The notes beneath the pieces were generated by a model. It was not told the DNA's origin and ran no database searches. It saw nothing but the letters and a program-made list of their open reading frames with translations. Position numbers and translations under genes: made by a program. A stretch of DNA of 64,000 bases from Alphaproteobacteria bacterium (GTDB lineage Bacteria; Pseudomonadota; Alphaproteobacteria; Micavibrionales; Micavibrionaceae), in the NCBI GenBank assembly GCA_013215815.1, contig JABSQP010000009.1:4598-68597 (forward strand), in the 5' to 3' direction. Of this stretch, positions 9,635 through 62,701 are shown one piece after another. The first letter of the stretch is position 1; the number at the start of each line of letters is the position of its first letter.

Positions 9635-9668
9635 GTGAAGCGATATCAATCACGGTATAGCTATTACT

Positions 9669-13691: not shown

Positions 13692-13702
13692 TCTTAAATT
13701 CG

Positions 13703-14416: not shown

Positions 14417-14422
14417 GCCCTC

Positions 14423-15379: not shown

Positions 15380-15414
15380 TTTACACAGATAAGAAAAGAT
15401 GAAATAGAGAATGC

Positions 15415-16527: not shown

Positions 16528-16576
16528 AATCAAGCAATACAAAAGATCATAATAAAAATATAAGGTAAGGTGTTTT

Positions 16577-17569: not shown

Positions 17570-17643
17570 TAATTATAGCTAATTGCGCTTTTCTCTGATC
17601 TCAAGTATATTTTTTGTGCGCACAAAAAACAGGGAGAATTACC

Positions 17644-18045: not shown

Positions 18046-18046
18046 A

Positions 18047-45298: not shown

Positions 45299-48200
45299 AT
45301 GATATCCACTGCGCTAACAGCGGCTGGTCTTTTATGTATCGCCCCTAACGCAAAAGCGGATCCAGCATGGTCTGACTTTACCGATGTTTCGGGTACAATT
45401 TCTACTGACGTTTCTATTCCTGACACAACCAAAATCAATCAACATACACAGACATACATAGGTAACAGCCCGAACCTTGATATCGGGAAAAATCAAACAG
45501 TTATTATTGGCCAAAACAACACTGGTTCTCTTTTCGTTGGTCGTGCGACGGGAGCAGGTGATGACCCAACAAAAATCCTCGGTACACTAAAAACAGTTCT
45601 CAAAAAACCAAGTGACGGTAATGATGGCTTTACATTCTCAAACCGTAGAGGTGGAGACGTTATGGTCATTGATCGTAACGGCGTATTCTTTGGTAAAGAC
45701 GCACGCGTGGATGTTGGTAGCATCATCGCAACAACAGGTAAGGTTAAAAATTCAGACATTCTTGATGGTGACGGTAAATTCAAATTCAAAAACTTTGGTG
45801 ACGGCGAAATTGTTAACAAAGGAACAATCACTGTAGCCAATGCTGGTTTGGCCGCTTTTGTATCACCACATATTTCTAACAGCGGTCTTATTAAAGCAAC
45901 AGTAGGTCGTGTTGCTATGGCATCGGGAAGCAAAGTTACTTTGGATCTTTACGGTGACAACCTTATTGAAATCGCCGTAGATGAAGATTTTAACGAAGGC
46001 CTCATCAAAAACACAGGTACCATCCTTGCTAAAGGCGGGGAAGTTATCATCAAAGCAGAAGTTGCTAAAGACGCGGTTGATAATGTCATCAACATGGGCG
46101 GTATTGTTAACGCTAGCGCGGCAACTGTTAAAGGCGGCAAGATTGTTCTTTCTGGTGGCTCTTCAGGTAAAGTAACTGTTAAAGGGCGATTGGATGCTTC
46201 GGGCAACACAACCGACGGTGGCTCTGTCGATATCTCTGGTGAACGCATTAAGATCACTGACACAGCGCGCTTACGTGCGAAAGGGTACAATGGCAGCGCC
46301 GCTGGTGAAATTACAGCTATTGCGGATGAAAGGCTTGTTGTTGATGGAAGACTTACAGCGCAAGGCCTAACAGATACTGGCTTTATTGAAACATCTGCGC
46401 CAACGACACTCTTTGGTACAGGCGCTTCTATCCTGGCAACACGTGAATGGTTGTTGGATCCAACAGATGTAAGCATTGATGCAGCCCTTGGCGGCCTCAT
46501 TGAAGCACAGTTAGGCGTTGGTGACATGACTGTTGAAACGCCAGCAGCAGGTGGCGATGCAGGAAACATTGCAATGCGTACAATCATTGATTGGGCGACA
46601 GATAACACATTAAAACTTATCGCTCACAATGACATTTTCTTAAGTGGTTCTTATGGCGGCGGCATTAACGCTGCTGGTGCAGGTAACTTTATCGCTGAAG
46701 CTGGCGATGACTTCCGTATGAACGCTGGCAACGGTTCAATCATCATGAACGGTGGTGATGTCACGATTAGTACAGGGGACGAGTTCACACTTGATGATGG
46801 CTTCATCCTTGCAGGTGGCGGGAACATCTCTATCGACAACACTGAATCATTCTCAGCAGTTGCAAACAGCCTTCGTACATCAGGCACTGGTACAATTGAG
46901 ATCAACCAAAACAAAGATGCAAACGGTAATAGCATTATTGCTACGCCAACTATTCAAAATGCGATTGATGCTATTTCAAACACAGGAACAGGCACAAACA
47001 CAATTAACGTTGGCGCGGGTACATGGGCAGAATCAGTAAATGTTGATCATGCTAATCTTGTTCTTAACGGTGCAAATGCAGGTCTTCACGGATCTGATGG
47101 CGCACGAGGCGCTGAAACGATTGTAACACCAAACTCACCTGGCTTTTATGTGACGGCTGACAATGCAACTATCGATGGTTTCACTGTCGATGGTAGCGGC
47201 GCATCAGGTAATAACGGCATTGAAGTTGATGGTGTAAATAACTTTAAAGGTATCAACAACGTTCTTATGAACAACACAGATACTGGTGCAGGCAGAAGTG
47301 CAAGCAGCTGGATAACTGGTGTTGGTGTTATTGTTAAGGACTCAACAGGTACAATTGAAATCGCAGATAACCGTGCGGAAGGTAATACGGATGGTGTCCG
47401 TATTCTTGATACGGACGCAGCTGCTCTTGGTGATGTAAAAATCAAGGGTAATGACGTTGTTGATAGCGGCGACAAAGGTATTATCACAAAGAACAGCGAT
47501 AACATCAAAATCGTAGACAATGATGTAACAGGCAGCTCAACAGGTGTTTGGCTTGAAAATAGTTCTGGTAACGTTGTTCGCGATAACACAGTTGACGATA
47601 GTTCGCAAAACGCTATCCGCTTACGTAACAATAGCGATGATAATGTCATTCATGACAACCGCATTGATGGCGCCGGCGATAACGGTATCCTCGTTGCAGC
47701 AAACTCTGACAATGTTGTGATTAGAAACAACCGCATCAGAAACGTTGATGAAAACGGTATTGATCTAGATGATAGCGACAATGCACGTATCATCGGAAAC
47801 CGTATCGGTCTTGCTGATGGCGCTGACAACATTGGTGATGATGGTATTGACCTCGATGACAGCAACGGCGCTGTTATTAGAGATAACCGCATCCGTAATA
47901 CTGATGAAAACGGTATCGACCTTGATGATAGTGACGATGCCAAAATCATTGCTAACGTCATTAACGATACAGGCGATGACGGTGTTGATCTAGATAACAG
48001 CGACAATGCACGTATCATTGATAATCGTATCGGCCTTGCTGGCGCAGTTGATAACATCGGTGATGATGGTATTGATCTAGATAACAGCGACGGTGCCCTC
48101 ATCAAAGGAAACAAAGTTAAAAACACAACAGAAAACGGCATTGATATCCGTAGCTCTGACAACACAACAATGCGAGATAACGTTGTTCGCGTGACTGGCG

Positions 48201-51200
48201 GTCATGGTATCTACGTAAATCCATCTGACAACATTCGTATTCTAGACAACACAATCACTGACACAGGTGAAGATGGCGTCCATGTAGAAGAAGGATATGA
48301 TGTTCGTGTTCGTCGTAATACAATTCGCCGTACTGGTGATGACGGTATTGATATCACACGTAACGATTATGTTCGTGTAACAGATAACACAGTAACAGAC
48401 ACAGACAGACGTAGTATTTCTATTGAGCGCTCTAGGAATGACGTAGAAAATTTCTCAGTTGTTGCTGCAGATAACACAGTTCGCCGCACTGGTAGAACAG
48501 GTATCGTTGTTGATCGCTTCACGACAGCACGCGTAGTGGATAACACGGTAACAGATTCAAACAGAGCTGGTATTCGTGTTCAACGTGGTGACGAAGCGCG
48601 TATTCGCCGTAATACAGTTCGTGACACACGCCGTGATGGAATTAGAGCGTTGAACCTTGATAGCGTTGACATCCGTCGTAACCTCGTTCGCAGAGCTGGC
48701 TGGGATGGCGTTCACCTAGAAAACTTCGGTTCGGCATGGATCGCTTACAATGATATTAAATGGACAGGTGATGATGGTGTCGATGCAACGAACGGTGACT
48801 TCGTCTCCATCTACGATAACTACATTGATCTATCTGGTTTCTTACCTGCAGAGATCTTCGGTAACGAGGAAGTTGGCGATGATGCAAATGGTATCTATGT
48901 TAGTGATGTTGGTGATGGTGAATTACCACCTCTATCTTTAGATGAAGGCTTCGGCTTTGGTTATTACGGTACATCTGTTGAAATTCATGGCAACGACGTT
49001 GTGAATGCTGAAGATGACGGTATCCAAGTTGAAGAAAGCGACTCTACTTACATCGGCTTCAACATAGTCGGTCACGCGGGCGATGACGGTATCGACGTCG
49101 ATGATGTAGACTACACAAAAGTATCTAACAACGTTGTTACTCTAGTGGGAGATAAGGGTATCACAATCGATAGCGGCAACTATGCTGGCGTATTCGATAA
49201 CTTAATCCTTTTAACTGGTAGTGACGGCATCCAAGTTGAGAATGTTCGCTACGACCATGACACAGACATCACAATACTTGGTGATGATAGTTACGGTTAC
49301 GGTTGGGCTGTAAATGTTTCCGGTAACGAAGTTGCTATGACAGGCAATGACGGCATTGAAGTGCGCAACAGCGATGCAACAAAAGTTCAAAAGAACAAAG
49401 TGTTCATGGCTGGTATGGGTGAAAATCTTGAAGATGTTATTGATACGATCAATGACTTTGCGAGTGAAACATTCAACCCATTACGTATCAGACGTCCTGC
49501 AACTCCATCTTACGAAGGTTTCGAATTATCATGGGGTAATGGTCACGGTATCAATGTTCATGGCATTGATGGTGCGTATTACAGTCCGAACGGTTGGGCA
49601 GCTGATATACGCGGTAATACAGTAGAATACACTGGTGGCCACGGCATTCTTGCAGAAAATAACGACAGAACACGCATTAAAAATAACCGTGTTCGTTACG
49701 CAGGTGTTGATAAAACATACTTTGACGGCGCATACAGCATGATGGACGTATTGAACAGCGGACCATTCCATGGTGAAGGTCGTCGTGATCTATGGCAGTC
49801 AACTGATGACAGCATGATGGATGTTCTGAATGGATACTTTGGTCAAGAAGAAGATCCTGAACCAGAATATGGTGACTACATCACAATCAGCTCTGTTGAT
49901 TTCGATTCACATGACGGTATTCACGCAGAAAACATTTACAGTGAATCACTTGATGGCCTAAGTGGTCGTGATTACCTCTACGATCTAAAAATCAAAAAGA
50001 ATGATGTGCGTCGCACAGGTGATGATGGTATCGAGGTGGTTTACGCAGGCCGTACTTTAATTGCGAAGAACACTGTGCGTCACGCAGGCTATGGTGATGA
50101 TATCGACTATGGTTCTGGTGATTATTACGGCGCAGATGGTATTCATGCGCGTTACATTTCAGGTAGCGTGTTTGGTTACCCAGATTCTCCTGGTTTAGAT
50201 CGCGGTGGACGTGAACCTGCAGAAAACTACGCTCTTATCGTTCGTAGAAACGATGTTCGCAATACAGCTGACGATGGTATTGAAGTTGTTGGTCGCGGCG
50301 GTATACCTGAAGTTAGCGTAGCAAGTACTGCTGGGCGTGGTTACCCACCATACTTCATCGGTACAACAGATCGTGTACTGATCAAGAAAAACACTGTACG
50401 CCGTTCAGGTATAGTTAATGGATTTGGCTTCTATGAAGATAATCTAGGCCCTGACGGTTACGGACACGATGGCATCCATGTGCGTGGCATTAATGGCCGC
50501 ACTGGTCCTATCTGGTCAGCTACAACATTAGCAGGCCCTGGCCCTCTCCCAGGTGATGGTGAGTATGGCTATTATGGTTACGCCGTAGACGTTATCGATA
50601 ACGATGTTCGCCGTACAGGCGACGATGGTATCGAGGTCATCAACTCCTCGTCTACATTGATCCTTGATAACACAGTAAGACGCGCTGGCGTTGGTGGTGG
50701 ATTATACTACGGTGGCGGAGATTACTTCGGCGCGGATGGTATCCATGTCCGTAACGTTGGTGACCTATTTGGTATTCCAGTTTGGCTCCCGGGTGCAGCT
50801 GGAGAGGCTGGATTCGGCTTCATTCCTTATTCAGTTGTTATTTCTGAAAATGATGTCCGCAGAACTGCAGATGATGGCATCGAAGTCGTTGACGAATTCG
50901 GACCAGAAAAAATGATCCAAGGATGGGGTGACGGCGGCGATGGTGACGGCTTCCCTGTCTTCGACCGTACAACTGGACGAACACTTATTTCTGAAAATGA
51001 TGTCCGTCACGCTGGTTATGGACTTCCTCCGATTGGTGATGGCTACCCATATAGTGGTTATGCTCCAGATGGATACGGCGCAGACGGCATTCATGTCCGC
51101 GGCGTAGGTCGCCCATCATATGGCGACGGAGATGGTGATGGCTGTGGCGCACCAACAGTTGGGTTCATCAATGATGGCTTCTACCCAGGTGATTTTGATG

Positions 51201-52288
51201 TTGAGATTTCAGATAACTACATCTGGAGCTCGGCGGATGATGGTGTTGAAGTTCACGGCCGCCCGTTTGGTCAAACTAACGTTCTAGTAGATCGCAATAT
51301 CATCGAGGACTCAGGTGATAACGGAATCTTGATTGCATCAGGTAATGGCCGTTTTGGATTTAAAATGCGCCCTATACCGTCAGTGTTCTTAAGCCCTATT
51401 GGAGGAGAAATTAACTCTGTTGTTTCAAACAATGAGGTATCTAACTCTGGTACAAATGGCTTGAACATTGCTGGATCTACACATAATGAGGTTATCGTTT
51501 CAGGAAATACATTTACTGACAACGATACTGGTGCTTCTTTCGAAAGTGGTACTATCGACCTCACAGGTGAAGGTAATACATTTGTTGGAGGCCGTGTTGG
51601 TATGCGTTTTGCGCCTGCTCCAATATTCTATTACCCAACAGCGCAGGTTCTTGATATCACGCCATCAATCTTACCACCTATGTTTGCACCAATGTCTCTT
51701 GTAGATAATACAATCGGCGCGCAAATATTTAATGGTCAAGATGAAAGCTATGTTGAACTCGACAATGGTGCGTTCTTCGATCCAGGTACACCAACATTAC
51801 TGAATGCTTTAGACAGCACATATGTTGGAACGCCTTTCGGAACGTTCACTCCGTCTTCTGATTTCGCAGCAGGCCTACCACTTAATGTTGTAGCCTACCT
51901 AGAGAGCAAGTTCGTTCACTTTAACGACAATGGAACAACAGGCTTGTTCTTCTTCCCTCTCTTACCTGAGATTTCACAAGAAGATATCTTCAACTACTTC
52001 GGCCCATACTCTTCTGGCCTAGCGGGTCTAGACGTTACTATCTTAGGCCTCCCAGGCATTCCTGGTGGATCTCCGGTAGCGCTTAATAACATTGCTCCTG
52101 CAGCTGGCGGAGATACATCTCCTGAAGCTCTGAATGCAATTGCGACAGCAGCTGGTGAAGATGGCGGTGAAACATCATCTTGTTGGGGTGATGCAATCGG
52201 CGCCGCGGGATCAGGCCAAACTGCAACTCTTAGCTACGGTGGTAGCGCAGAAGAGCTTCTCAGTGGCGAAGCAAGCTGTGGATCCTAA
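45299..52288 (+). CDS. Giant TpsA exoprotein: haemagglutinin-type TPS domain plus right-handed parallel beta-helix (PbH1/CASH-like) repeats
   Basis: 2329 aa. It has a signal-like N-terminus and a TPS domain pattern (INQHTQTYIGNSPNLDIGKNQTVII...ILGTL...VMVIDRNGVFFGKDARVDVGSIIATT...VNKGTITVANAGLAAFVSP.ISNSGLI). About 2000 aa of 22-25-residue repeats of the type N.I...GDDGI.L..S....I..N follow. Confidence 0.85.
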   Translation: MISTALTAAGLLCIAPNAKADPAWSDFTDVSGTISTDVSIPDTTKINQHTQTYIGNSPNLDIGKNQTVIIGQNNTGSLFVGRATGAGDDPTKILGTLKTVLKKPSDGNDGFTFSNRRGGDVMVIDRNGVFFGKDARVDVGSIIATTGKVKNSDILDGDGKFKFKNFGDGEIVNKGTITVANAGLAAFVSPHISNSGLIKATVGRVAMASGSKVTLDLYGDNLIEIAVDEDFNEGLIKNTGTILAKGGEVIIKAEVAKDAVDNVINMGGIVNASAATVKGGKIVLSGGSSGKVTVKGRLDASGNTTDGGSVDISGERIKITDTARLRAKGYNGSAAGEITAIADERLVVDGRLTAQGLTDTGFIETSAPTTLFGTGASILATREWLLDPTDVSIDAALGGLIEAQLGVGDMTVETPAAGGDAGNIAMRTIIDWATDNTLKLIAHNDIFLSGSYGGGINAAGAGNFIAEAGDDFRMNAGNGSIIMNGGDVTISTGDEFTLDDGFILAGGGNISIDNTESFSAVANSLRTSGTGTIEINQNKDANGNSIIATPTIQNAIDAISNTGTGTNTINVGAGTWAESVNVDHANLVLNGANAGLHGSDGARGAETIVTPNSPGFYVTADNATIDGFTVDGSGASGNNGIEVDGVNNFKGINNVLMNNTDTGAGRSASSWITGVGVIVKDSTGTIEIADNRAEGNTDGVRILDTDAAALGDVKIKGNDVVDSGDKGIITKNSDNIKIVDNDVTGSSTGVWLENSSGNVVRDNTVDDSSQNAIRLRNNSDDNVIHDNRIDGAGDNGILVAANSDNVVIRNNRIRNVDENGIDLDDSDNARIIGNRIGLADGADNIGDDGIDLDDSNGAVIRDNRIRNTDENGIDLDDSDDAKIIANVINDTGDDGVDLDNSDNARIIDNRIGLAGAVDNIGDDGIDLDNSDGALIKGNKVKNTTENGIDIRSSDNTTMRDNVVRVTGGHGIYVNPSDNIRILDNTITDTGEDGVHVEEGYDVRVRRNTIRRTGDDGIDITRNDYVRVTDNTVTDTDRRSISIERSRNDVENFSVVAADNTVRRTGRTGIVVDRFTTARVVDNTVTDSNRAGIRVQRGDEARIRRNTVRDTRRDGIRALNLDSVDIRRNLVRRAGWDGVHLENFGSAWIAYNDIKWTGDDGVDATNGDFVSIYDNYIDLSGFLPAEIFGNEEVGDDANGIYVSDVGDGELPPLSLDEGFGFGYYGTSVEIHGNDVVNAEDDGIQVEESDSTYIGFNIVGHAGDDGIDVDDVDYTKVSNNVVTLVGDKGITIDSGNYAGVFDNLILLTGSDGIQVENVRYDHDTDITILGDDSYGYGWAVNVSGNEVAMTGNDGIEVRNSDATKVQKNKVFMAGMGENLEDVIDTINDFASETFNPLRIRRPATPSYEGFELSWGNGHGINVHGIDGAYYSPNGWAADIRGNTVEYTGGHGILAENNDRTRIKNNRVRYAGVDKTYFDGAYSMMDVLNSGPFHGEGRRDLWQSTDDSMMDVLNGYFGQEEDPEPEYGDYITISSVDFDSHDGIHAENIYSESLDGLSGRDYLYDLKIKKNDVRRTGDDGIEVVYAGRTLIAKNTVRHAGYGDDIDYGSGDYYGADGIHARYISGSVFGYPDSPGLDRGGREPAENYALIVRRNDVRNTADDGIEVVGRGGIPEVSVASTAGRGYPPYFIGTTDRVLIKKNTVRRSGIVNGFGFYEDNLGPDGYGHDGIHVRGINGRTGPIWSATTLAGPGPLPGDGEYGYYGYAVDVIDNDVRRTGDDGIEVINSSSTLILDNTVRRAGVGGGLYYGGGDYFGADGIHVRNVGDLFGIPVWLPGAAGEAGFGFIPYSVVISENDVRRTADDGIEVVDEFGPEKMIQGWGDGGDGDGFPVFDRTTGRTLISENDVRHAGYGLPPIGDGYPYSGYAPDGYGADGIHVRGVGRPSYGDGDGDGCGAPTVGFINDGFYPGDFDVEISDNYIWSSADDGVEVHGRPFGQTNVLVDRNIIEDSGDNGILIASGNGRFGFKMRPIPSVFLSPIGGEINSVVSNNEVSNSGTNGLNIAGSTHNEVIVSGNTFTDNDTGASFESGTIDLTGEGNTFVGGRVGMRFAPAPIFYYPTAQVLDITPSILPPMFAPMSLVDNTIGAQIFNGQDESYVELDNGAFFDPGTPTLLNALDSTYVGTPFGTFTPSSDFAAGLPLNVVAYLESKFVHFNDNGTTGLFFFPLLPEISQEDIFNYFGPYSSGLAGLDVTILGLPGIPGGSPVALNNIAPAAGGDTSPEALNAIATAAGEDGGETSSCWGDAIGAAGSGQTATLSYGGSAEELLSGEASCGS
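47762..48211 (+). repeat. Intragenic 225-nt (75-codon) tandem duplication within tpsA
   Basis: The segment from 47762 (GATCTAGATGATAGCGACAATGCACGTATCATCGGAAACCGTATCGG...) recurs at 47987 (GATCTAGATAACAGCGACAATGCACGTATCATTGATAATCGTATCGG...) with high identity over about 90 nt. The outer boundary is approximate. Confidence 0.6.
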
Positions 52289-52316: not shown

Positions 52317-52346
52317 AAAACACCCCTTCTGGGGTGTTTTTTTATT
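52317..52346. terminator. Bidirectional rho-independent terminator between tpsA and the VTC gene
   Basis: AAAACACCCC (52317-52326), loop TTCT, then GGGGTGTTTT (52331-52340) followed by TTTATT. A/T runs lie on both sides. Confidence 0.75.
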
Positions 52347-52357: not shown

Positions 52358-53044
52358 TTAATAATAGGTCGCGTAGCCAAAAGCCGCTAAACCAACAAGG
52401 TATTTAGAATGGCGTTTCGGCGTTAAATTTAAAGCGCGCAAAGATTGTACAACAGCAGATCGACGTTCAGCAGGAAACTTAACTTCCATAACTGATTGTG
52501 GATATGAAATCACTTGGCTCTCTGATAGCTTCATATGAGGTAGCGGTGACGAAAACTGGACGGACCGATCAAACGTCACGCGAACACCGTCTAACCCTTC
52601 GTAATACTCACGTTCATAAGACACATGCAAAGTTGGAAAGAAGTAATCATCTGCCAAAAAAGATCTATCGCCACCTAAACTGCTGTGTACTCGTTGGAAT
52701 AAATCACCATATTTTAGATCCAATAACTCTTTTTCCAATCCGTGTGTATCAAAGCGATCTTTTCCGCCCAACCTGCCATCACGATACTTCACTTCCAGAT
52801 GAACTGAATTGATGTTTTCTTTCTTATCATCATGATACCAGCGCAACCGTATTTTTCGCCTTTGAGAAATACCCGCCAGATTATCACGCACGGCGCTATA
52901 TCCAGGATCATCGAAGTAAATAGAGTTTACTGTTCTTTTAGGATGCGCTTCTCTCGCGCCTGTAGTGCTATAAAGCCAGGAAACAGCCTGAGACAGCCTA
53001 CTCTCATCCAGAACAAACTTCATTTCATAGCGATAATCACTCAT
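52358..53044 (-). CDS. VTC-domain (triphosphate tunnel, polyphosphate-polymerase-like) protein
   Basis: 228 aa and soluble. Beta-strand motifs with alternating charged residues (YRYEMKFVL, SIYFDDP, RRKIRLRWY, VHLEVKYRDG, VMEVKFP) are typical of VTC/CYTH tunnel enzymes. It overlaps the CotH-like gene by 4 nt. Confidence 0.7.
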   Translation of the reverse strand: MSDYRYEMKFVLDESRLSQAVSWLYSTTGAREAHPKRTVNSIYFDDPGYSAVRDNLAGISQRRKIRLRWYHDDKKENINSVHLEVKYRDGRLGGKDRFDTHGLEKELLDLKYGDLFQRVHSSLGGDRSFLADDYFFPTLHVSYEREYYEGLDGVRVTFDRSVQFSSPLPHMKLSESQVISYPQSVMEVKFPAERRSAVVQSLRALNLTPKRHSKYLVGLAAFGYATYY

Positions 53045-55671
53045 TTTCTCATCGTCTCGCTTTTGTATAGCTTCTTAACGTTAATATCTATTTCTTCTAC
53101 CTCTTGACCATCGACGATTAAGGTTGTGCCCTCTTGTCTAGAAAAAGCATTAGAGTCATCATAACTCATATTATTTATCGTAAGATAAGATGGCCCAAAC
53201 ATTGGCTTCTTCATATACGTCATTGCTGCATGTAATTTATAATTAACAACAGATATACCCTCTGCTTCAACACGGCTTCCATCCTTAGATGCAATCGCTA
53301 CTCCAACATTATTTGCTAGACTATTCTTAACGATAAGGTCGCTCCCCTCGCCTGCAGATATAGCTTTATCGTGAATATTGGTGGCGTCCAAGCCATCAAT
53401 AAGAACGCGACTACCAGAGAAATCGACACCATCTCCCCTCACATTATCTACATTTACATTGAGTATTTTCCCATCTGAAAAATCACAATCAAAAGCGTCA
53501 GAACGTGTCGTTGTTAACGTACTGCGTTCCAACGTGAAGTCGGAGCGAACAATATTAAGAGCGTCTTCCGCAATTGTTCCTAAAAATTTTGAATCACTGA
53601 TTGTTACAGGAGATTTATAGAATGTAACGGCTCCAGTTAGTGATAAAAGACCATCTTGCAATGCCGTCGTGTTAGCAATAACAACATGCTGCAATACAGA
53701 TGGCTTTTGAGCCTGTAAGACATATACACCCTTCCAAGTCTCTTCTGAAGGCAGCATTTGTATCTTCAGCTTATCTGTTCCTTTTGCGTTCAATGCGCCC
53801 CGCACAATCATATATGCATCTGGCGCGAAAATCATTTTAACGCCCGCAGCTATTTCCAAATCACCATTGACGAGAAAAGGACGGGAAACAAACCAAGTAC
53901 CGTAATTTATACGGTACTTATCTTCATCAATCTTCTTAACAAATCTAGGGCTTTCTTGATTATATAACGCATCAAAAGGATTATAATAATCAGTTGAAAA
54001 AGTTGCCTTTGAAGATGTTACGCGCTTAATACCTTTGTAAGAAGTATGCGCTTTAAAACGATTATCATGATTGCCCGTGAAATCTGTTTTTACTTTAAGC
54101 TCACCGTTATTTTCAGTGTATGGCGGAACAACTGATGAGGTAAATTCAACTTCTTTATCCTTATAGTATATCTTCTCAATTTTAACTGGAACATCTAAGA
54201 GGTTAAATAAAACAAGATCGCCACTATCGTAATGGCGAATATGCACATGATCTAGTAATCCATTTACTTGTTTTTCTGTAGGCTCTTGTTTCGACTGAGC
54301 ACTTCTATTTTCTGGTGATCCAAAATTTTCAAGATCTGCATTCTTTTTTACGATCTCAACATTGTTAAAAAACATTTCAAAATCAATTTCTGCGTTATTT
54401 GGAAAATAACTTTGATAATGTTCATACAAACTTGGGATGGCATTACTGGCTTCTGAAACAGACGCTAGAGCCTTAGGCAAAAGGGCCTTCGCTTCTGGTT
54501 GTGATAAAGCTGCTTGGAACAACCATTCGTTTTCCAAAAATTTTAAAGGATTTATATCATCGGAGACAGGGTAGAACGCACCCTGATCAGTTGTGATTGG
54601 CTCTAACTGCAAAATATATGGATTGAAATAAAACCGGGCATTATTAAAATCCAACGTATGCTTATTATTCCACATAGCCGTGGAAATACCTGTCTTAAGA
54701 AAGCTCTCTACATTAACAACGCTCGCTTCCTCCCCTTTTAGAAATCTATCCATAACGAAACTGTAATAATCTCTAAACAGTGGGTTTTCGAAGTTCTTAT
54801 TCATACGATAAACAGATGTAAACAAACGTCTATCGGACAAACGATATCCCTTGTAAGGATTATCTTCTAACGTTTGATATGTCGCTTTTTGGCCGTCTAT
54901 TAGCTTGAAAATAAGAGACTCTTTAGACTTACGCTTTTCTAAGAACTCTTTAGACATATGCTCTTCAGCATGCATCACACCCCAATTTTCACCATTTACA
55001 AAAACACGTAAATAATTATGACTTGAAGACAGCTCACCCGTTTGCGAAACAAACCCTTGGAAAACCTGATCGTATGGATGTTGCCGCGCGCCTGGCTTTT
55101 GAATAGAAAATCTATTAAAGCCATTAATCATTTTCTTTTTCTTTAAGTTGATGCGCAAACTCATACGCGTTTTAGAGCGCCAATGATCATAAAGATCGCC
55201 TTTTAAACGTATATCTGCTTTATATGTTTTACCCTGATAACGAATTTGAGCTGGAACCTCATTCGGTTCCATTAAACGGTAGTGCTCTAATGCTTTTTTC
55301 CTGTCATCCAAAATAGTCTTATAATCTCTAAACTTGATATCTATATCGATACGATCAATATCAGGCCGATCAGAAAAACCGGTGACTTTTTTATAGATTA
55401 TAGAGGGTGCCCGAAATAAAACCTTTTCAGGGAACATCTTAAGCATAGACAGTATAACTTCAGATTTTGTGTTTCCGAGCTGATTGATGTTTCCGACACC
55501 ATAAAGGCCGGTAACGCTGGCTATACCCCAATCATACACAAGCGCTTTATCAAGAACAGAAGCACCTTCCAGCTTCAGACGCTCTTTAGTGATTCCAAAA
55601 GTAAGCAATACCAACAATATCAGCGCCCCTATTATTAGAGGTTTTTTGGCATTTTGCTTTTTTATAATCAT
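53041..55671 (-). CDS. Exported/anchored CotH-like kinase family protein with C-terminal beta-helix repeats
   Basis: 876 aa with an N-terminal anchor KKPLIIGALILLVLLTFGI. The CotH-like core is YKADIRLKGDLYDHWRSKTRMSLRINL...FSIQKPGARQHPYDQVF...NYLRVFVNGENWGVMHAEEHMSKEFLEKR. The C-terminal ~250 aa are PbH1-like repeats (DALNIVRSDFTL...DGVDFSGSRVLI...DKAISAGEGSDLIV...VGVAIASKDGSRV). Confidence 0.65.
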   Translation of the reverse strand: MIIKKQNAKKPLIIGALILLVLLTFGITKERLKLEGASVLDKALVYDWGIASVTGLYGVGNINQLGNTKSEVILSMLKMFPEKVLFRAPSIIYKKVTGFSDRPDIDRIDIDIKFRDYKTILDDRKKALEHYRLMEPNEVPAQIRYQGKTYKADIRLKGDLYDHWRSKTRMSLRINLKKKKMINGFNRFSIQKPGARQHPYDQVFQGFVSQTGELSSSHNYLRVFVNGENWGVMHAEEHMSKEFLEKRKSKESLIFKLIDGQKATYQTLEDNPYKGYRLSDRRLFTSVYRMNKNFENPLFRDYYSFVMDRFLKGEEASVVNVESFLKTGISTAMWNNKHTLDFNNARFYFNPYILQLEPITTDQGAFYPVSDDINPLKFLENEWLFQAALSQPEAKALLPKALASVSEASNAIPSLYEHYQSYFPNNAEIDFEMFFNNVEIVKKNADLENFGSPENRSAQSKQEPTEKQVNGLLDHVHIRHYDSGDLVLFNLLDVPVKIEKIYYKDKEVEFTSSVVPPYTENNGELKVKTDFTGNHDNRFKAHTSYKGIKRVTSSKATFSTDYYNPFDALYNQESPRFVKKIDEDKYRINYGTWFVSRPFLVNGDLEIAAGVKMIFAPDAYMIVRGALNAKGTDKLKIQMLPSEETWKGVYVLQAQKPSVLQHVVIANTTALQDGLLSLTGAVTFYKSPVTISDSKFLGTIAEDALNIVRSDFTLERSTLTTTRSDAFDCDFSDGKILNVNVDNVRGDGVDFSGSRVLIDGLDATNIHDKAISAGEGSDLIVKNSLANNVGVAIASKDGSRVEAEGISVVNYKLHAAMTYMKKPMFGPSYLTINNMSYDDSNAFSRQEGTTLIVDGQEVEEIDINVKKLYKSETMRK

Positions 55672-55701
55672 ATGTATTTCCCGCTATCTAAGCGTACATA
55701 T

Positions 55702-56412
55702 CTACCAGTTTGTTTTAGCTTCAAAGAAGGAACAAGTTGCGGATTTATCTTCTTCTCGAACAAGTTTCATAACATTATCAAGCTTTTCATTATCATTCAG
55801 CGCAACCAACAAAACCGCAGTGTTCGCATCTGCTGTATAATCCAAGCGAACGACTTTTAAGCTCTTTGTGCGGTCTTTAATCGCATCTAATATCTGCGAA
55901 AACTCAATATCTGCTGATTTCCAATTAATCACCATGTTGTATTCATCTGCCTGTCCGACCTTACGGTTAGACAACCAAAAGTAAACAACCACCAAGATTG
56001 CTAAAGTAAATAATGTTGTAATTAGAACTTGGCCGGCACCATACCCAATACCTATGGCAATCGCCAAAAATAAATACACTAATTCTTCCGGCTCTTTAAT
56101 AGGCGTACGGAAACGTACAATAGAAAGAGCACCAACCAAACCAAGAGAAAGCGCAAGAGACGATTTCACAACGACAATAACCAAAAAGATTACAGCTGAA
56201 AGTACAGGTAAGACTGCACCAATGTGATTTTTACCAGTAAGAGAAAAAGAGCGACGAATATAGAAATCTCTGACAATAAATGCCATCGCCACACACAAGA
56301 CGAAACTAAAAGACGTTGGAATTAACTCTAGCTGATCACTAGAATTAGGAAATAATGTCGCGATGCTTTCAAGCTTGTCCATAAAAGGCTCCCCTATAGA
56401 TCGATAAACCAC
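55702..56412 (-). CDS. DUF4956 family membrane protein
   Basis: 236 aa with about 4 TM helices. The hallmark LGLVGALSIVRFRTPIKEPEELVYLFLAIAIGIGYGAG is present, followed by a ~95-aa soluble C-terminal domain. It is the first gene of the three-gene operon. Confidence 0.7.
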   Translation of the reverse strand: MVYRSIGEPFMDKLESIATLFPNSSDQLELIPTSFSFVLCVAMAFIVRDFYIRRSFSLTGKNHIGAVLPVLSAVIFLVIVVVKSSLALSLGLVGALSIVRFRTPIKEPEELVYLFLAIAIGIGYGAGQVLITTLFTLAILVVVYFWLSNRKVGQADEYNMVINWKSADIEFSQILDAIKDRTKSLKVVRLDYTADANTAVLLVALNDNEKLDNVMKLVREEDKSATCSFFEAKTNW

Positions 56413-57412: not shown

Positions 57413-57613
57413 TCAAATACGGCTATCTGCAGTTTCCGAAGGCTGCAGACACGAGCTACATCCACAACCACAACCATGAGAAGTCGTTTCAAGTGATTGT
57501 TTTAGATTACTTGCCTCTGGGGCTTTCGCATTCGCCTTTTCAGCATGCCCCAACTGAGAGAAAGCAAAGAATGTTACAAACAAACCTGTTATCTTTAATA
57601 TTACGCCCCTCAT
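57413..57613 (-). CDS. Candidate small secreted Cys-rich peptide
   Basis: 66 codons with SD AAAGGA 7 nt upstream of the ATG at 57613. The signal peptide is MRGVILKITGLFVTFFAFSQLGHA/E and the mature part contains HGCGCGCSSC. It is only the 3' part of a longer ORF-track entry that runs through tRNA-Tyr. Confidence 0.35.
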   Translation of the reverse strand: MRGVILKITGLFVTFFAFSQLGHAEKANAKAPEASNLKQSLETTSHGCGCGCSSCLQPSETADSRI

Positions 57614-57731
57614 AAAGTAGTCCTTTCGTATTTCGCTTCTTAAATTATAGCATCTATACTTAAAAGAAAACAAAAAGAGCCTGTCATACGCACAATCTAA
57701 AGCAGTATTTTTAATGAAATTAATTATGAAA

Positions 57732-57817
57732 TGGTGGAGGGAGTAGGATTCGAACCTACGTACGCTTACGCGGGCGGAGTTACAGTCCGCTGCCTTTAAC
57801 CACTCGACCATCCCTCC
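57732..57817 (-). tRNA. tRNA-Tyr (anticodon GTA)
   Basis: The reverse complement is GGAGGGATGGTCGAGTGGTTAAAGGCAGCGGACTGTAACTCCGCCCGCGTAAGCGTACGTAGGTTCGAATCCTACTCCCTCCACCA. It has a long variable arm, anticodon loop CTGTAAC and an encoded CCA. Confidence 0.9.
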
Positions 57818-57904
57818 ACGCGGGCAATTAAATATCGAGTTAAATACGGAGCATAAGAAAAAGCTTTTTGCTTTCTTTGTCAAGGGCATGTATGAAGTTT
57901 TCTT

Positions 57905-58699
57905 ATGAAACATCACAAAAATAAGCATAAAGGTCACAAAGGCCAGAAAAGCAAGTCAGCGCGCCTAAATTTAAGCCTTTTTGGCTTTCACGCCGTAGCC
58001 GAAGCTTGGCTTAACCCAAAACGCCATATACATGCTCTATTCGTAACGGAAAGCGCGCTTTATGGATTTGAAGAAACAATGAAAAAAGCTGCTGAAAAAG
58101 GTTTAAAACGCCCAGATCCGCAAATTATCGACAAAGCAGCCTTAGATAGCGCGACACCGCCAGGCGCTGTCCATCAGGGGGTTGCCCTGTCCTGTCAAAA
58201 TTTAGAACAGATGGATATTCGCGATATTCTGGCGAAAATTCAAAATAATGAGAAAACTACCCTAGTTATGCTCGATCAAGTGACAGACCCGCATAATGTT
58301 GGTGCCATTTTACGATCAGCCAGTGTTTTCGGTGCATCTGGCCTTATAATGCAGGATAAACATGCCCCTGATTTAGGTGGTACGCTTGCAAAAACAGCCT
58401 GCGGAGCCGTTGAACATGTTCCCGTTGCATATGAAACAAACCTGACCCGTTGCTTGGAATTACTACAAAAAGAAGGATATTTCGCTATCGCACTCGATGA
58501 GCGAGGGGATGCTGAAATATCTGAGTTCCCGAAATATGAGAAGGCTGTTCTTGTGATGGGCGCTGAAGGCGATGGGCTTCGAAGACTTGTGCGGGAACAA
58601 TGCGACGTTCTGGCGCGGCTTCCCGTATACGGAGCCGTTCCCTGTCTGAATGTGTCGAATGCTGCTGCTGTAGCTCTGTATGCTGTGCAGAAACCTTAA
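57905..58699 (+). CDS. rlmB: 23S rRNA (guanosine-2'-O)-methyltransferase RlmB (SpoU/TrmH family)
   Basis: 264 aa with a basic N-terminal tail and SpoU motifs (DPHNVGAILRSA, LVMGAEGDGLR, LNVSNAAAVALY). Confidence 0.85.
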   Translation: MKHHKNKHKGHKGQKSKSARLNLSLFGFHAVAEAWLNPKRHIHALFVTESALYGFEETMKKAAEKGLKRPDPQIIDKAALDSATPPGAVHQGVALSCQNLEQMDIRDILAKIQNNEKTTLVMLDQVTDPHNVGAILRSASVFGASGLIMQDKHAPDLGGTLAKTACGAVEHVPVAYETNLTRCLELLQKEGYFAIALDERGDAEISEFPKYEKAVLVMGAEGDGLRRLVREQCDVLARLPVYGAVPCLNVSNAAAVALYAVQKP

Positions 58700-59192: not shown

Positions 59193-61964
59193 ATGACTGC
59201 AGATAAGAATACTCTCTATTTAGTGGATGGCTCCGGCTATATCTTTCGTGCTTATTACGCTATGGCTTATAGCGGTGGCGGAAGCCTAACAAATCCTGAA
59301 GGAACACCTGTTGGTGCGGTATATGGCTTCACCAATATGATGATGAAGCTACTCGATGATCATAAAGAAGCAGTCATTGCTGTTATCTTTGACGCGGCGC
59401 GCGCAAATTTTCGTAATGACATTTATGAAGATTACAAAGCAAATCGTGATGAAACACCTGAAGATCTTATTCCGCAGTTCCCTCTTGTGCGTGAAGCAAC
59501 AGAAGCTCTAGGCATTCCAGCAGTAGAACTAGAGGGGTACGAGGCAGATGACCTCATCGCCACTTATGCGCAGCAAGCTGTCGCTCAAGGTAAAAAAGTG
59601 ATCATAATCTCTTCTGATAAAGACCTCATGCAACTTGTCACCGATGACATTAGCATGATGGATCCAATGAAGAATAAAATGATTGACCCAAAAGGTGTTG
59701 TCGAAAAATTCGGCGTTACACCAGATAAGGTTGTTGATGTGCAATCCCTTGCTGGAGATAGTGTTGACAATGTCCCGGGCGTACCTGGTATTGGGGTAAA
59801 AACCGCAGCACAACTCATTAATGAGTATGGCTCTCTCGAAGAGCTTTTAAATCGTGCGGAGGAAATAAAGCAACCCAAACGTCGTGAAAAACTCATAGAA
59901 AATGCCGATATGGCGCGTATATCCCAACAACTTGTTAGATTAGCGCAAGATGCACCTGTTCCCATGCCTTTGGAACAATTCACACACCACGACCCAACTA
60001 TGCCCGATTTAAAGGCCTTCTTACAAAAGCAAGGATTTAAGTCGATGCTGACACGCCTTGGTGACACTGTTTCAAATGATACGGCAGAACAAAGCGCGGA
60101 TATCAAAACAGAAGAACTACCGGCTATTTCAGAGAATGAATACACTCTAATCACGGATATCGATACTCTAAAAGAATGGATAGAAGATGCTTATCAAACA
60201 AGCGTTCTGGCAATCGATACAGAAACAACACACCTCACACCTGCGATAGCCAAACTCGTCGGTATTTCGATTTGTTCAACAATCGGAAAAGCCGCTTATA
60301 TCCCGCTTACTCATGTTCCTGAAGAAGTGGATCTGCTGGGTGAGAGTAAAGGTGATCTCGTTCAAATTCCTTTTGATGATGCTATTAACGCGCTCAAACC
60401 ACTTTTGGAAGACCCTAGCGTTTTAAAAGTAGGTCAGAATATAAAATATGATTGGCAGATGTTTAAAAAGCATGGCATTCATATGGCCCCTTGCGATGAT
60501 ACGATGCTTATATCCTACACAGTAGATGGCACAAGCCATTCAAATTCAATGGATGGACTATCTAAACTCTTCCTCGATCATGAGCCAATAAAATATGAAG
60601 AAGTTGCTGGGAAAGGTAAAAATCAGGTTACGTTCGACAAAGTCGACGTAGACAAAGCACGCGATTATGCCGCAGAAGATGCAGACATAACACACCGCCT
60701 CCACCATACATTCAAACCGCGTGTCGCACGTGAAAAAATGGCACGCGTCTATGAAGATATCGAACGCCCACTTGTTTCAGTTATTGGACAAATGGAGCTA
60801 GATGGCATTAAAGTTGATCAGCTTATTTTAAAAGAAATGAGCAGCGATTTTGCCAAGAAGATCCAAGAACTTGAAAAAGAAATTCATACCGAAGCAGGCA
60901 CTGAATTCAACATTGGATCGCCAAAGCAGATCGGAGAAATTTTATTTGATCAAATGGGTCTATCTGGCGGTAAAAAAACCAAGACAGGCCAATGGTCAAC
61001 TGATGTTTCAACACTCGAAAAACTATCTGCACAAGGTCATAAAATTGTTAGCGATATCCTTGAATGGCGCGGCCTTGCCAAACTAAAAAGCACATATACA
61101 GACGCCCTTCAGGAACAAATAAACCCTGATACAGGGCGTGTACACACCTCTTTTTCTATGGCTGGCACATCAACAGGACGCCTTGCATCCAGTGACCCAA
61201 ACTTACAAAACATCCCAATTCGTACAGAAGATGGACGCCGTATTCGTGAAGCGTTCGTAGCCGAAGAAGGACATGTTCTTTTATCCGTCGATTACTCGCA
61301 AGTTGAACTGCGTCTCGCCGCAGAAATGGCTGACGTAGCCGCACTAAAGCAAGCATTCAAAGATAACGTTGATATTCACGCCATGACAGCATCGCAAGTC
61401 TTTGGTGTACCGCTCGATGAAGTATCCAGCGATCTTCGACGTCAGGCAAAAGCTGTTAACTTTGGTATTATATATGGCATCTCTGGCTGGGGCCTTGCCA
61501 AACAACTGGACTGTGATCCAGGAGATGCACAGGAATTCATCAATAAATATCTCGATGTCTTTGGTGAGATTCGTGACTTTATGGAGGAGCAAAAAGAATT
61601 TGCGCGTCAATACGAATATGTTGAAACACTCTTTGGCCGCAAATGCTTTACCCCCAATATTAATGCGAAGCAGCAAAATGTGAAAATGGGGGCCGAACGC
61701 GCTGCGATTAACGCGCCTCTCCAAGGTACTGCCGCTGATATTATGAAGATGGCGATGATTAAAATGCCGCGCGCATTAAAAGAGGCAAACCTAAAGGCAA
61801 AAATGCTTCTTCAAGTTCACGATGAATTAATTTTCGAAGTACCTAGCGATGAACTAGAGAAAACATCTGACCTCGTCAGACACGTCATGGAGAACGTTGT
61901 TGATCTTGATGTTCCATTAATTGCAGAAGCAGGTCACGGAAACAGCTGGGCCGAGGCACACTAA
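59193..61964 (+). CDS. polA: DNA polymerase I
   Basis: 923 aa with a 5'-nuclease N-terminus (LVDGSGYIFRAYYA), 3'-5' exo motifs (AIDTETT) and polymerase motifs (DYSQVELRLAA, RRQAKAVNFGIIYG, QVHDELIFE). Confidence 0.95.
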   Translation: MTADKNTLYLVDGSGYIFRAYYAMAYSGGGSLTNPEGTPVGAVYGFTNMMMKLLDDHKEAVIAVIFDAARANFRNDIYEDYKANRDETPEDLIPQFPLVREATEALGIPAVELEGYEADDLIATYAQQAVAQGKKVIIISSDKDLMQLVTDDISMMDPMKNKMIDPKGVVEKFGVTPDKVVDVQSLAGDSVDNVPGVPGIGVKTAAQLINEYGSLEELLNRAEEIKQPKRREKLIENADMARISQQLVRLAQDAPVPMPLEQFTHHDPTMPDLKAFLQKQGFKSMLTRLGDTVSNDTAEQSADIKTEELPAISENEYTLITDIDTLKEWIEDAYQTSVLAIDTETTHLTPAIAKLVGISICSTIGKAAYIPLTHVPEEVDLLGESKGDLVQIPFDDAINALKPLLEDPSVLKVGQNIKYDWQMFKKHGIHMAPCDDTMLISYTVDGTSHSNSMDGLSKLFLDHEPIKYEEVAGKGKNQVTFDKVDVDKARDYAAEDADITHRLHHTFKPRVAREKMARVYEDIERPLVSVIGQMELDGIKVDQLILKEMSSDFAKKIQELEKEIHTEAGTEFNIGSPKQIGEILFDQMGLSGGKKTKTGQWSTDVSTLEKLSAQGHKIVSDILEWRGLAKLKSTYTDALQEQINPDTGRVHTSFSMAGTSTGRLASSDPNLQNIPIRTEDGRRIREAFVAEEGHVLLSVDYSQVELRLAAEMADVAALKQAFKDNVDIHAMTASQVFGVPLDEVSSDLRRQAKAVNFGIIYGISGWGLAKQLDCDPGDAQEFINKYLDVFGEIRDFMEEQKEFARQYEYVETLFGRKCFTPNINAKQQNVKMGAERAAINAPLQGTAADIMKMAMIKMPRALKEANLKAKMLLQVHDELIFEVPSDELEKTSDLVRHVMENVVDLDVPLIAEAGHGNSWAEAH

Positions 61965-62701
61965 TATATATTTTCTGTTCTAAATGACTTTAATCTTAGT
62001 TTCGTCAAATGTGTTTCTGTACCTTGCTGATTATCCAGTGTTTTACCTTTAAAGTAATTCTTTTGCCATTCCTCTTCACGAGCATCTGTACCAGGCATAT
62101 CAAGGTCTTTATTGAAAGCAATGCGTTCCTTTGCCCACGTCGTGTGCTCTATGTTCAATCCGAAATCAGATGACATTGGCTTAATAACCGGATCTACGGT
62201 CTGTAAAACTTCTCTTTGAACTGGAAACACACTACAAAAAGGCATCCCTTTTTCGAAAGTCACCCACTCACCTGGTTTTGAAATCTTCCAATTCATCGTA
62301 AAGCTATAAGGCGACCAGTCTGTTTCAATTACGCCCGTGAGGGGATAAGCAAAATCACACGGCGTGTTCGGTGATCCACCTGCCATCAAATTCCATTCAG
62401 GTTCTGTTCTAAAAACACCATGAATGAAGAACGTTAAAATACCATCACCAAAAGCAGAAGCGCACACATTCGCCATTTGCTGAGATTTATCTATCTTGAG
62501 ACTACTTTTTCCTTTACCCCCATCCCAGAAGGCACGTACATCTTGCTCTAAATGGAAAGACCAACCATGCGCGTTGGCGATACTCAAAGGTAGGCAACGG
62601 TATGCATATTTGTCAGGTGTCTGATCCATCCAATCACGCGTCGGTGAATTAGGTCTTAAATCATAACTGTGACCATCAACTACATAAAATTCTAGCTTCA
62701 T
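61961..62701 (-). CDS. Conserved hypothetical protein (resembles the DUF6065 family)
   Basis: 246 aa. The segment RDWMDQTPDKYAYRCLPLSIANAHGW resembles what I recall of DUF6065 proteins. The assignment is by memory only. Confidence 0.4.
   Translation of the reverse strand: MKLEFYVVDGHSYDLRPNSPTRDWMDQTPDKYAYRCLPLSIANAHGWSFHLEQDVRAFWDGGKGKSSLKIDKSQQMANVCASAFGDGILTFFIHGVFRTEPEWNLMAGGSPNTPCDFAYPLTGVIETDWSPYSFTMNWKISKPGEWVTFEKGMPFCSVFPVQREVLQTVDPVIKPMSSDFGLNIEHTTWAKERIAFNKDLDMPGTDAREEEWQKNYFKGKTLDNQQGTETHLTKLRLKSFRTENIY

Follow-up and report, generated by a model that had tools for sequence, protein, structure and literature searches.

Genes for a CotH protein, a polyphosphate (polyP) polymerase and a DUF4956 (/DUF4832) protein have been described in streptococci, clostridia and bifidobacteria as an accessory set directly adjoining pelDEADAFG (Whitfield et al. 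2020, 10.1101/768473), and VTC, DUF4956-like and CotH genes were also found together in NELoc-2 of Clostridium perfringens (PMC2879425). In Streptococcus intermedius, where the set is SIR_1594-1592, deletion of the DUF4956 or the CotH gene cut aggregation in artificial sputum by more than half, and the two deletions shifted the level of Pel in opposite directions; the DUF4956 homologue was described as an MgtC-like transmembrane (TM) domain with a cytoplasmic ACT domain, and the three-gene synteny was not found by the authors outside pel loci (mBio 2025, PMC12345266). In the present work, a trio of the same three families was analyzed in a stretch of 64,000 nucleotides (hereafter the window) of contig JABSQP010000009.1, from a marine alphaproteobacterial metagenome-assembled genome (MAG). 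The trio encodes a DUF4956 membrane protein, a membrane-anchored CotH-like protein ending in a beta-helix, and a soluble VTC-type triphosphate-tunnel protein. The first-pass annotation of the window, made from the sequence, had stated that no function had been demonstrated for these genes in bacteria, which still held for biochemical function in the literature but not for the trio as such, since it had already been described and was partly tested by the S. intermedius genetics.

Compared to the Gram-positive pel accessory set, the trio studied here has the same three families side by side, a secreted CotH protein, a DUF4956 protein with MgtC-like TM and ACT parts, and a link to exopolysaccharide; the weak MgtC matches obtained here agreed with the description of the streptococcal DUF4956 homologue. 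Differently, the gene order is CotH-VTC-DUF4956 there and DUF4956-CotH-VTC here. An FN3 domain and a signal peptide are found on the CotH protein of the pel set, whereas the one here has a signal anchor, a beta-sandwich and a beta-helix like that of polysaccharide lyase family 3 (PL3), and the hosts here are Gram-negative and mostly marine. No Pel genes or DUF4832 gene were found beside the trio in the window, and no such families were present in the eight annotated related loci. Earlier publications list the trio as an accessory set of unexplained role, and its Gram-negative marine form differs from that set in gene order, in CotH architecture and in having no pel genes.

Based on the analyses below, we tentatively propose that the trio is one module spanning the inner membrane, by which polyP might be relayed from the cytoplasm to an external CotH/beta-helix enzyme. 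The split topology of this module, with a cytoplasmic VTC protein, a polytopic DUF4956 protein and an external CotH-like protein, was well supported by the sequence predictions. All four outcomes that would have spoken against the first-pass annotation were contradicted by the analyses, and its reading is judged largely sound, with the mechanism as a hypothesis.

Conservation of the three-gene cassette

For the locus scan, one genome per species was taken, and hidden Markov models (HMMs) built from the three families were run on all 33 resulting loci; five further loci were cut by contig ends. Where both flanks were available, 31 of 33 loci had the full trio, on one strand and ordered DUF4956-CotH-VTC; the two exceptions, both Nitrospina, lack the partner genes. 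The trio is no chance juxtaposition. The same arrangement on one strand was seen in all eight annotated contigs with a CotH-like homologue. The loci span at least eight phylum-level groups, almost all of them uncultured marine bacteria, including Alphaproteobacteria (Thalassospiraceae, Hyphomicrobiaceae, Kordiimonadaceae and single-cell genomes of Pelagibacteraceae (SAR11)), Gammaproteobacteria, Sulfurovum, Nitrospina, Cloacimonadales, Myxococcota, Flavobacteriales and a MAG labelled Akkermansia (Verrucomicrobia-assigned). The synteny is much wider than pel loci, and the co-occurrence that the first-pass annotation had asked about extends far beyond this genome.

The open reading frame (ORF) list confirmed that the three minus-strand genes are tightly coupled in the window, with a gap of 30 nt between the DUF4956 and CotH genes and a 4-nt ATGA overlap shared by the CotH stop and the VTC start. 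This 4-nt overlap was kept in 19 of 29 loci, and an overlap of 1 or 11 nt was found in five more. In addition, the pairwise-identity matrices of the three proteins were correlated with each other (r 0.85-0.89, Mantel p 0.001). The conserved order, the overlaps and the correlated matrices showed that the three genes travel and diverge together. The opposite explanation, that the genes are mere neighbours with unrelated functions, is hardly tenable: it is contradicted by the order kept in nearly all loci across distant phyla and in tandem trios (three in locus L028, two in L030), by the overlapping start and stop codons, and by the correlated divergence of the three proteins.

The family is large. 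The CotH/beta-helix protein had homologues in 4,465 representative clusters at E<=1e-30 in a library of 1.84 billion proteins, and the DUF4956 search returned at least 8,000 matches. A tblastn search of plasmids with the CotH-like protein gave no match. As for the tandem loci, the Kordiimonadaceae contig L028 carries three divergent trios at 5359-18439, one of them arranged VTC-DUF4956-CotH on the other strand, and the alphaproteobacterial single-cell genome L030 carries two at 518-8910. The paralogous CotH proteins of these two loci were very divergent, with HMM scores of 91-309 compared to about 700 for the main copy, which suggests diversification for different substrates. In the alphaproteobacterial MAG locus L020 (4489-6479), an IS3-family element interrupts the DUF4956 gene, its orfA/orfB lying on the opposite strand at 4886-6054, and leaves the CotH and VTC genes intact.

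The three proteins and their predicted topology

All three proteins fell in the families named by the first-pass annotation, all three by Pfam and the CotH-like protein by Foldseek as well. The VTC protein matched PF09359 with an E-value of 5.5e-27 (95.3 bits, cut-off 23), residues 5-221 covering positions 2-233 of the 235 in the profile. It is a single-domain protein without an SPX domain and without a fused DUF202 transmembrane domain; no signal peptide was found in the window protein, and a TM-like segment was found in none of 39 homologues. A profile of these 39 homologues was searched against the PDB and retrieved yeast Vtc2, Vtc3 and Vtc4, and the Vtc4 numbering was worked out from the residue ranges over which the 3G3Q chain and the full-length Vtc4 chain in 8I6V were matched. 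The motifs YEMKF, KIRLRWY, LEVKY and MEVKF, noticed at first pass, are present and hold residues aligned with the catalytic residues of Vtc4 (Table 1), with K9 in YEMKF probably corresponding to Vtc4 K200, as judged by its strand-1 motif position only. The tunnel was intact, its Vtc4-equivalent residues being invariant or at least 90% conserved among the 39 homologues.

In the yeast enzyme, the tunnel residues hold triphosphate and Mn2+ and are required for polyP synthesis, and K458 is the sole such residue that differs in the inactive Vtc2 and Vtc3 (cryo-electron microscopy of the VTC complex, 10.1101/2023.01.27.525886). At this site, which is K214 here, the bacterial HSKY aligned with FSKF of Vtc4, HGQW of Vtc2 and FSLY of Vtc3, and a conserved hydrophobic C-terminal tail, LVGLAAFGYATYY, followed directly after S213-K214. 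Because SPX domain, TM segment and signal peptide are all lacking, the protein is read from its sequence as a minimal cytoplasmic Vtc4-like catalytic domain, which may polymerise polyP. Compared to the eukaryotic VTC complex (Vtc4/Vtc3 or Vtc2/Vtc1), the PF09359 catalytic domain is the same, all nine active-site residues are identical (K458 included; K200 judged by position), and an enzyme predicted on the cytoplasmic side again stands beside a dedicated membrane partner. Differently, SPX is missing here, the catalytic domain is not fused to TM segments, the partner is a DUF4956 protein (MgtC-like plus ACT) instead of a three-helix DUF202 domain, and an extra enzyme, predicted to be extracytoplasmic, is present. 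Any channel formed by DUF4956 would thus be analogous and not homologous to the eukaryotic one.

The DUF4956 protein matched PF16316 with E-values of 1.7e-18 to 1.9e-18 (67 bits, cut-off 30.6). Its AlphaFold model (predicted local distance difference test score, pLDDT, 75) consisted of five hydrophobic helices followed by a beta-alpha-beta-beta-alpha-beta domain at residues 148-221, as the first reading of a polytopic protein with a soluble C-terminal domain had it. The C-terminal domain matched ACT/ferredoxin-like folds by Foldseek (3IBW, TM-score 0.76); the membrane part had no Foldseek match, and a search of the PDB sequences for DUF4956 returned noise only. This family is the best conserved of the trio, its top matches being 58-79% identical to the window protein, and an invariant block, KSSLALSLGLVGALSIVRFRTPIKEPEELVYLFLAIA, runs across its middle in the alignment. 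Judged by its acidic N-terminus and by where the basic residues lie, the protein is predicted to be N-out/C-in with the ACT-like domain on the cytoplasmic face, where the invariant residues R38, R44, K51, H53, R90, R92 and K96 are predicted to lie as well. Weak similarity to MgtC was detected both with Pfam PF02308 (E 0.042, 14.7 bits, cut-off 31.4) and with the NCBIfam MgtC/SapB model (E 1.2e-3, 18.5 bits, cut-off 214); these values fall well short of the family thresholds, and the DUF4956 protein appears to be a distant MgtC/SapB relative at most. It has in common with MgtC/SapB/YhiD proteins a build of some five TM helices and then an ACT-like domain in the cytoplasm, besides the weak profile matches, and it differs from them in an invariant RFRTPIKEPEE loop that is specific to this DUF4956 group.

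The 876-aa CotH-like protein was found by hydropathy, AlphaFold model and Foldseek to have the N-terminal anchor and C-terminal beta-helix previously ascribed to it. A single N-terminal hydrophobic segment, with none elsewhere, was present in 101 of 105 family members, and the net charge around it averaged +2.8 before and about 0 after the segment. Since the segment stands alone at the N-terminus and is preceded by positive charge, an N-in signal anchor is predicted, which would leave the bulk of the protein outside the inner membrane; a cytoplasmic location, which would have spoken against the first reading, was thus not predicted. The match to Pfam CotH (PF08757) was marginal as well as partial (E 1.8e-5, 24.8 bits, cut-off 23.8; profile positions 1-120 of 322 only), many homologues had no recorded Pfam CotH match, and no PDB entry was found with a profile of the CotH/beta-helix family. 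The AlphaFold model, computed from 105 sequences, reached a pLDDT of 94.5 and a predicted TM-score (pTM) of 0.92, and its best Foldseek match was the CotH kinase of Bacillus cereus (5JDA/5JD9; E 1.5e-11, probability 1.00, 371-383 columns, TM-score 0.55 relative to the target). Given the partial Pfam match and the empty PDB sequence search, the assignment rests on the predicted structure, by which the protein has a true CotH fold.

To compare active sites, family members, three divergent paralogues and two Bacillus CotH proteins were aligned with MAFFT L-INS-i; the B. subtilis CotH sequence used matched 5JD9 with an E-value of 2.4e-140, in a search that also supplied the B. cereus sequence. The alignment was gapless through the catalytic region and equated N344 with N233, D362 with D251 and Y348 with Y237, the Asn-to-Asp spacing being 18 residues in both. 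The metal-binding N344 and D362 were invariant in all 105 sequences, and the invariant residues of the domain comprised R155, K157, H163, S171, R196, N226, E245, R300, N344, Y348, P351 and D362. An hhalign comparison of the family with B. subtilis CotH was weak (E 0.0035, probability 9%) and placed the catalytic loop in a different register; the MAFFT register, which has no gaps and preserves the distance from Asn to Asp, was trusted over it for these reasons. No acidic residue was found at the catalytic position in either register, both of which are sequence alignments only.

The CotH protein of B. subtilis phosphorylates coat proteins on Ser, and its D228Q mutant is inactive (PMC7821199). 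Compared to the Bacillus enzymes (5JD9/5JDA), the fold, the N-lobe motifs and the metal ligands Asn233/Asp251 at their 18-residue spacing are the same, whereas Asp228 is replaced here by Thr, Ala, Val, Pro or Ser with a near-invariant His just before, and the protein, at about 17% identity, is membrane-anchored, predicted to be periplasmic and fused to a beta-helix. In this way, fold and metal site are kept and the canonical catalytic base appears to be lost, and because the D228 equivalent is absent, the label 'kinase' is not assured. This bears on one further explanation, that the CotH-like domain is a kinase of proteins on the surface or secreted from the cell, just as CotB and CotG are phosphorylated by B. 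subtilis CotH. The CotH fold and the Ser kinase precedent (PMC7821199) speak for it, and giant surface proteins adjoin the cassette in the window and in its closest relative, L006, so that the substrate in the window could be the neighbouring giant two-partner-secretion beta-helix protein. However, neither the catalytic Asp nor, across loci, the giant neighbours are conserved, the giant gene in the window is convergent with a terminator between, and the beta-helix of the CotH-like protein itself resembles carbohydrate enzymes; protein phosphorylation of this kind was considered very unlikely.

The C-terminal beta-helix scored just under the Pfam Beta_helix cut-off (25.1 bits, E 1.5e-5, cut-off 25.9), and Pectate_lyase PF03211 matched it weakly (E 0.047, 13.7 bits, cut-off 25). 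By Foldseek it matched polysaccharide enzymes at E 5e-5 to 1e-2 (the alginate epimerase AlgG, glucanases of glycoside hydrolase family 87, lyases of PL6 and PL3, and a capsule lyase) and also tailspikes of phages, the PL3 matches standing at about 1e-2 with TM-scores of 0.4-0.5. An acidic ladder of E702/D703/N706, D725/D728/D730 and D747/D750 was invariant in 105 of 105 sequences, as were the pairs that follow it, D768-K769, K796-D797 and K821-K822. When the beta-helix profile was searched against the PDB, only the PL3 pectate lyase of Caldicellulosiruptor bescii was retrieved, at a marginal E-value of 0.2-0.3 over 130 residues; in this marginal alignment, D768-K769 fell on D107-K108, and D747 and D725 on the coils of E84/D85 and D64. 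The titles of the PL3 entries in the PDB name K108, D107, Q111 and R133 as mutated residues, and K108 is presumably the catalytic base. The PL3-like ladder and the Asp-Lys pair indicate a beta-helix adapted to binding a linear polyanion by way of divalent cations, and possibly to acting on it as well. It has in common with C. bescii Pel3 (3T9G) the right-handed beta-helix, the acidic residues stacked on its coils and, in the marginal alignment, the Asp-Lys pair, and AlgG offers a parallel as a periplasmic enzyme whose substrate is an acidic polysaccharide still being made. It differs from PL3 and AlgG in that the sequence similarity is marginal and that a kinase-fold domain is fused to it. To our knowledge, no lyase or epimerase activity is known for the CotH/beta-helix family.

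A possible polyphosphate relay and its rivals

Two elements absent from the first-pass annotation were added here, the pectate-lyase-like site of the beta-helix and a link of the cassette to surface-glycan clusters. Glycan gene clusters contained or adjoined the cassette in six of the eight annotated loci. The neighbours were NeuB, sulfotransferases, Wzx and AsnB in locus L001; UDP-sugar dehydrogenases, APS kinase and aminotransferases in L003; a PglB/Bac_transf/glycosyltransferase cluster in L004 (Sulfurovum); and a GT4 and a Wzz-type gene in L042. In L008 and L043 they were GT2, GT56, DegT and rml-like genes, beside type IV pilin genes. In L031, a SAR11 single-cell genome outside these eight loci, the neighbours were a WecA-like glycosyltransferase, epimerases and a TylF-type methyltransferase. 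A census of three genes on each side of the 33 species-level loci, 128 proteins in total, recorded 11 Glycos_transf_1, 6 GT4 N-terminal domains, 4 GT2, 6 sugar epimerases/dehydratases and 7 methyltransferases. The siting beside pilin genes in L008 and L043 and the PglB cluster of Sulfurovum hint that the modified glycan could be protein-attached.

According to the relay that we tentatively favour, the VTC protein would polymerise polyP from cytoplasmic adenosine triphosphate (ATP), and the growing chain would leave the VTC tunnel onto the invariant basic cluster on the cytoplasmic face of a DUF4956 oligomer. This oligomer would thread polyP to the periplasm, with the ACT-like domain as a possible gate. 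Outside, the CotH-like domain might take polyP as phosphoryl donor or as substrate, with the Asn344/Asp362 metal site and His338 in place of the absent catalytic Asp. A linear polyanion would be held by the beta-helix through its Asp ladder of the Ca2+/Mg2+ type and its Asp-Lys pair. This polyanion could be either an acidic surface polysaccharide that becomes (poly)phosphorylated or the polyP chain itself, and the net result would be a cell envelope glycan modified with phosphate. In this scheme we infer the polymerase activity, the translocation by DUF4956, the use of polyP by the CotH-like protein and the identity of the acceptor.

The periplasm and the cell surface contain no ATP, and bacterial polyP synthesis is currently credited to PPK1 and PPK2. 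A broader claim, that the trio is a bacterial counterpart of the VTC machine in which a Vtc4-like polymerase sits on a non-homologous MgtC-like conduit that drives polyP into the periplasm and a periplasmic kinase-fold enzyme uses polyP in place of ATP, is doubtful on the present evidence. If true, it would be the first dedicated supply of phosphoanhydride energy to the ATP-free extracytoplasmic space and a third bacterial polyP route beside PPK1 and PPK2. An active VTC-type enzyme would also have implications for how the eukaryotic VTC complex arose. What powers external kinase-fold enzymes is a question that this translationally coupled operon makes directly testable. The family, with its thousands of clusters, is concentrated in uncultured marine bacteria including SAR11, and the cassette is found in hypervariable surface-glycan regions that govern interactions with phages and grazers and the phosphorus economy; the module is thereby widened beyond the Pel biofilm loci of Gram-positive bacteria.

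A number of observations weigh against the relay. The tunnel residues of the VTC protein are common to many triphosphate tunnel metalloenzymes that hydrolyse and do not polymerise. MgtC relatives act, as far as we know, as regulators of other proteins and not as channels. The DUF4956 protein gave no match to DUF202, the channel domain of the eukaryotic VTC complex, even at E<=10, and its TM part was modelled at a pLDDT of 57-89, which is moderate confidence; for these two reasons its conduit role is conjecture. At position 339 of the CotH-like protein, the equivalent of D228, Thr was found in 64 sequences, Ala in 15, Val in 8, Pro in 8 and Ser in 7, with no Asp (the His338 before it being present in 103 of 105). 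In two Nitrospina loci, a full-length CotH/beta-helix gene was present without DUF4956 or VTC genes within 10 kb, permissive search included, and in the window and the related loci L006 and L007 the cassette stands outside glycan clusters. In the literature, no paper was found that assigns a biochemical function to the trio and no measured activity for its bacterial members. Deletion of the VTC gene in S. intermedius gave no phenotype, which ill fits VTC as the obligatory source of a donor (PMC12345266). The silent streptococcal VTC mutant, the missing Asp and the Nitrospina genes without partners are the reasons for caution about the relay.

Some of these observations speak for a different explanation, in which the periplasmic CotH/beta-helix protein is the sole effector and acts on an acidic polysaccharide in a lyase-, epimerase- or kinase-like manner, while the MgtC-like DUF4956 protein with its ACT sensor and the VTC protein, as a hydrolase or the maker of a small phosphate signal, would only regulate or energise it from the cytoplasmic side and no polymer would cross the membrane. 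The S. intermedius VTC mutant without phenotype and the opposite shifts of Pel in the other two mutants (PMC12345266) fit this arrangement, as does the CotH/beta-helix gene kept alone in Nitrospina. The PL3-like active-site residues are invariant, the Foldseek matches of the beta-helix are listed as all polysaccharide enzymes, and the weak MgtC similarity and the ACT-like domain of DUF4956 are both typical of regulators. However, the equivalent of K458, which marks the active Vtc4 from the inactive Vtc2 and Vtc3, is strictly kept, and the strict synteny and translational coupling across phyla suggest a stoichiometric complex and not loose regulation. A processing enzyme with a regulatory pair was rated as unlikely.

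The same topology and the same evidence for the VTC active site that carry the relay would equally serve the export of polyP as an end product, that is, as a periplasmic or surface store of phosphorus and cations or as a polyanion of the matrix, in which case the CotH/beta-helix protein would be a receiver, an anchor or a length-controlling enzyme of the chain and not a glycan kinase. A linear polyanion bridged by metal ions would fit the Asp ladder and Lys pairs of the beta-helix, the family abounds in oligotrophic marine bacteria, SAR11 among them, and the cassette also stands alone outside glycan clusters (window, L006 and L007); in Gram-positive bacteria, an anionic polymer could conceivably cross-link the cationic Pel. 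A large periplasmic phosphate pool in marine bacteria is reported (PMC4525184, PMC7250820), but the latter describes the pool as osmotically releasable orthophosphate and not polyP. Neither the frequent siting in glycan clusters nor the retention of the kinase fold is explained by export. We consider it improbable that polyP itself is the end product; together with the processing enzyme, this export is the main alternative to the relay.

Layout and neighbourhood in the window

The ORF list gave the DUF4956 gene as 55702..56412 (236 aa, GTG start) and the other two genes as in Table 1. Most likely, translation starts at the ATG at 56382 instead of the GTG at 56412, because a Shine-Dalgarno sequence, GGGGAG, lies 6 nt upstream of this ATG and the resulting 226 aa is the length of nearly all homologues. 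Downstream of the VTC gene, a hairpin of the sequence AAAACACCCC-TTCT-GGGGTGTTTT, then TTTATT, sits between the convergent VTC and giant beta-helix genes and is likely a bidirectional intrinsic terminator that closes the operon. Sigma-70-like matches were no commoner than in shuffled sequence and no promoter is claimed, no riboswitch or other known RNA was found in the operon region, and PADLOC gave no match to a defence system.

Table 1. Features of the cassette in the window, and residues of the VTC-type protein aligned with yeast Vtc4
Feature	Position	Strand	Basis
DUF4956 membrane protein, 226 aa	55702..56382	-	Pfam PF16316
CotH-like/beta-sandwich/beta-helix protein, membrane-anchored, extracytoplasmic (predicted), 876 aa	53041..55671	-	ORF, Pfam, AlphaFold
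Signal-anchor helix, residues 10-28, after basic stretch KKQNAKK	55588..55644	-	Hydropathy; AlphaFold helix at residues 9-26
CotH-like domain (atypical kinase fold), residues ~100-470	54262..55374	-	Foldseek vs 5JDA
Middle all-beta, sandwich-like region and start of beta-helix, residues ~476-640	53752..54246	-	AlphaFold secondary structure
Right-handed beta-helix, residues ~641-860, 22-residue coils	53092..53751	-	Pfam, Foldseek
VTC-type triphosphate-tunnel protein, soluble, 228 aa	52358..53044	-	Pfam PF09359
VTC R66/R68, motif KIRLRWY: Vtc4 R264/R266			Profile-to-3G3Q alignment
VTC K86, motif LEVKY: Vtc4 K281			Profile-to-3G3Q alignment
VTC Y143/R145: Vtc4 Y359/R361			Profile-to-3G3Q alignment
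VTC E187, motif MEVKF: Vtc4 E426			Profile-to-3G3Q alignment
VTC S213/K214: Vtc4 S457/K458			Profile-to-3G3Q alignment
G+C-rich palindromic hairpin, A-/T-runs on both sides	52317..52340	none	Terminator scan

The trio is flanked on one side by GATase, tRNA-Tyr, SpoU and PolA genes and on the other by a two-partner secretion pair and ilv genes. The two genes of the pair are divergent: 43166-44887 (-) encodes a ShlB/FhaC-type transporter with POTRA_2 and ShlB domains, and 45299-52288 (+) a protein of 2,329 aa that is almost all NosD/PbH1 beta-helix repeats and whose N-terminus shows a weak haemagglutinin-type secretion domain. The latter gene converges on the VTC gene, and the terminator is common to both. 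The giant protein was considered as a part of the system and rejected, for its gene is convergent, separated by the terminator and not conserved in the relatives. In the closest relative, L006, a giant surface protein of 5,108 aa (cadherin/Big_9/S8) and an RND/OEP exporter lie next door.

In the gammaproteobacterial-type loci L008 and L043, at about 17-23 kb, the cassette has the glycan cluster on one side and, on the other, type IV pilin genes in tandem together with PilS/PilR. In the Nitrospina MAG loci L013 (9755-12427) and L022 (8824-11484), the neighbours are genes for cytochrome c, leucine-rich repeat and dihydrolipoamide-dehydrogenase-like proteins.

Back in the window, the gene for tRNA-Tyr(GTA) at 57732-57817 (-) underlies a mechanically called ORF of 174 aa at 57413-57937, which is largely spurious because of the tRNA gene within it; its 3' part could encode a short Cys-rich peptide with a signal peptide (…HGCGCGCSSC…). 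Downstream of polA, a DUF6065 gene (E 6e-87) and a DUF1223 gene adjoin each other at 61961-62701 (-) and 62711-63385 (-), respectively.

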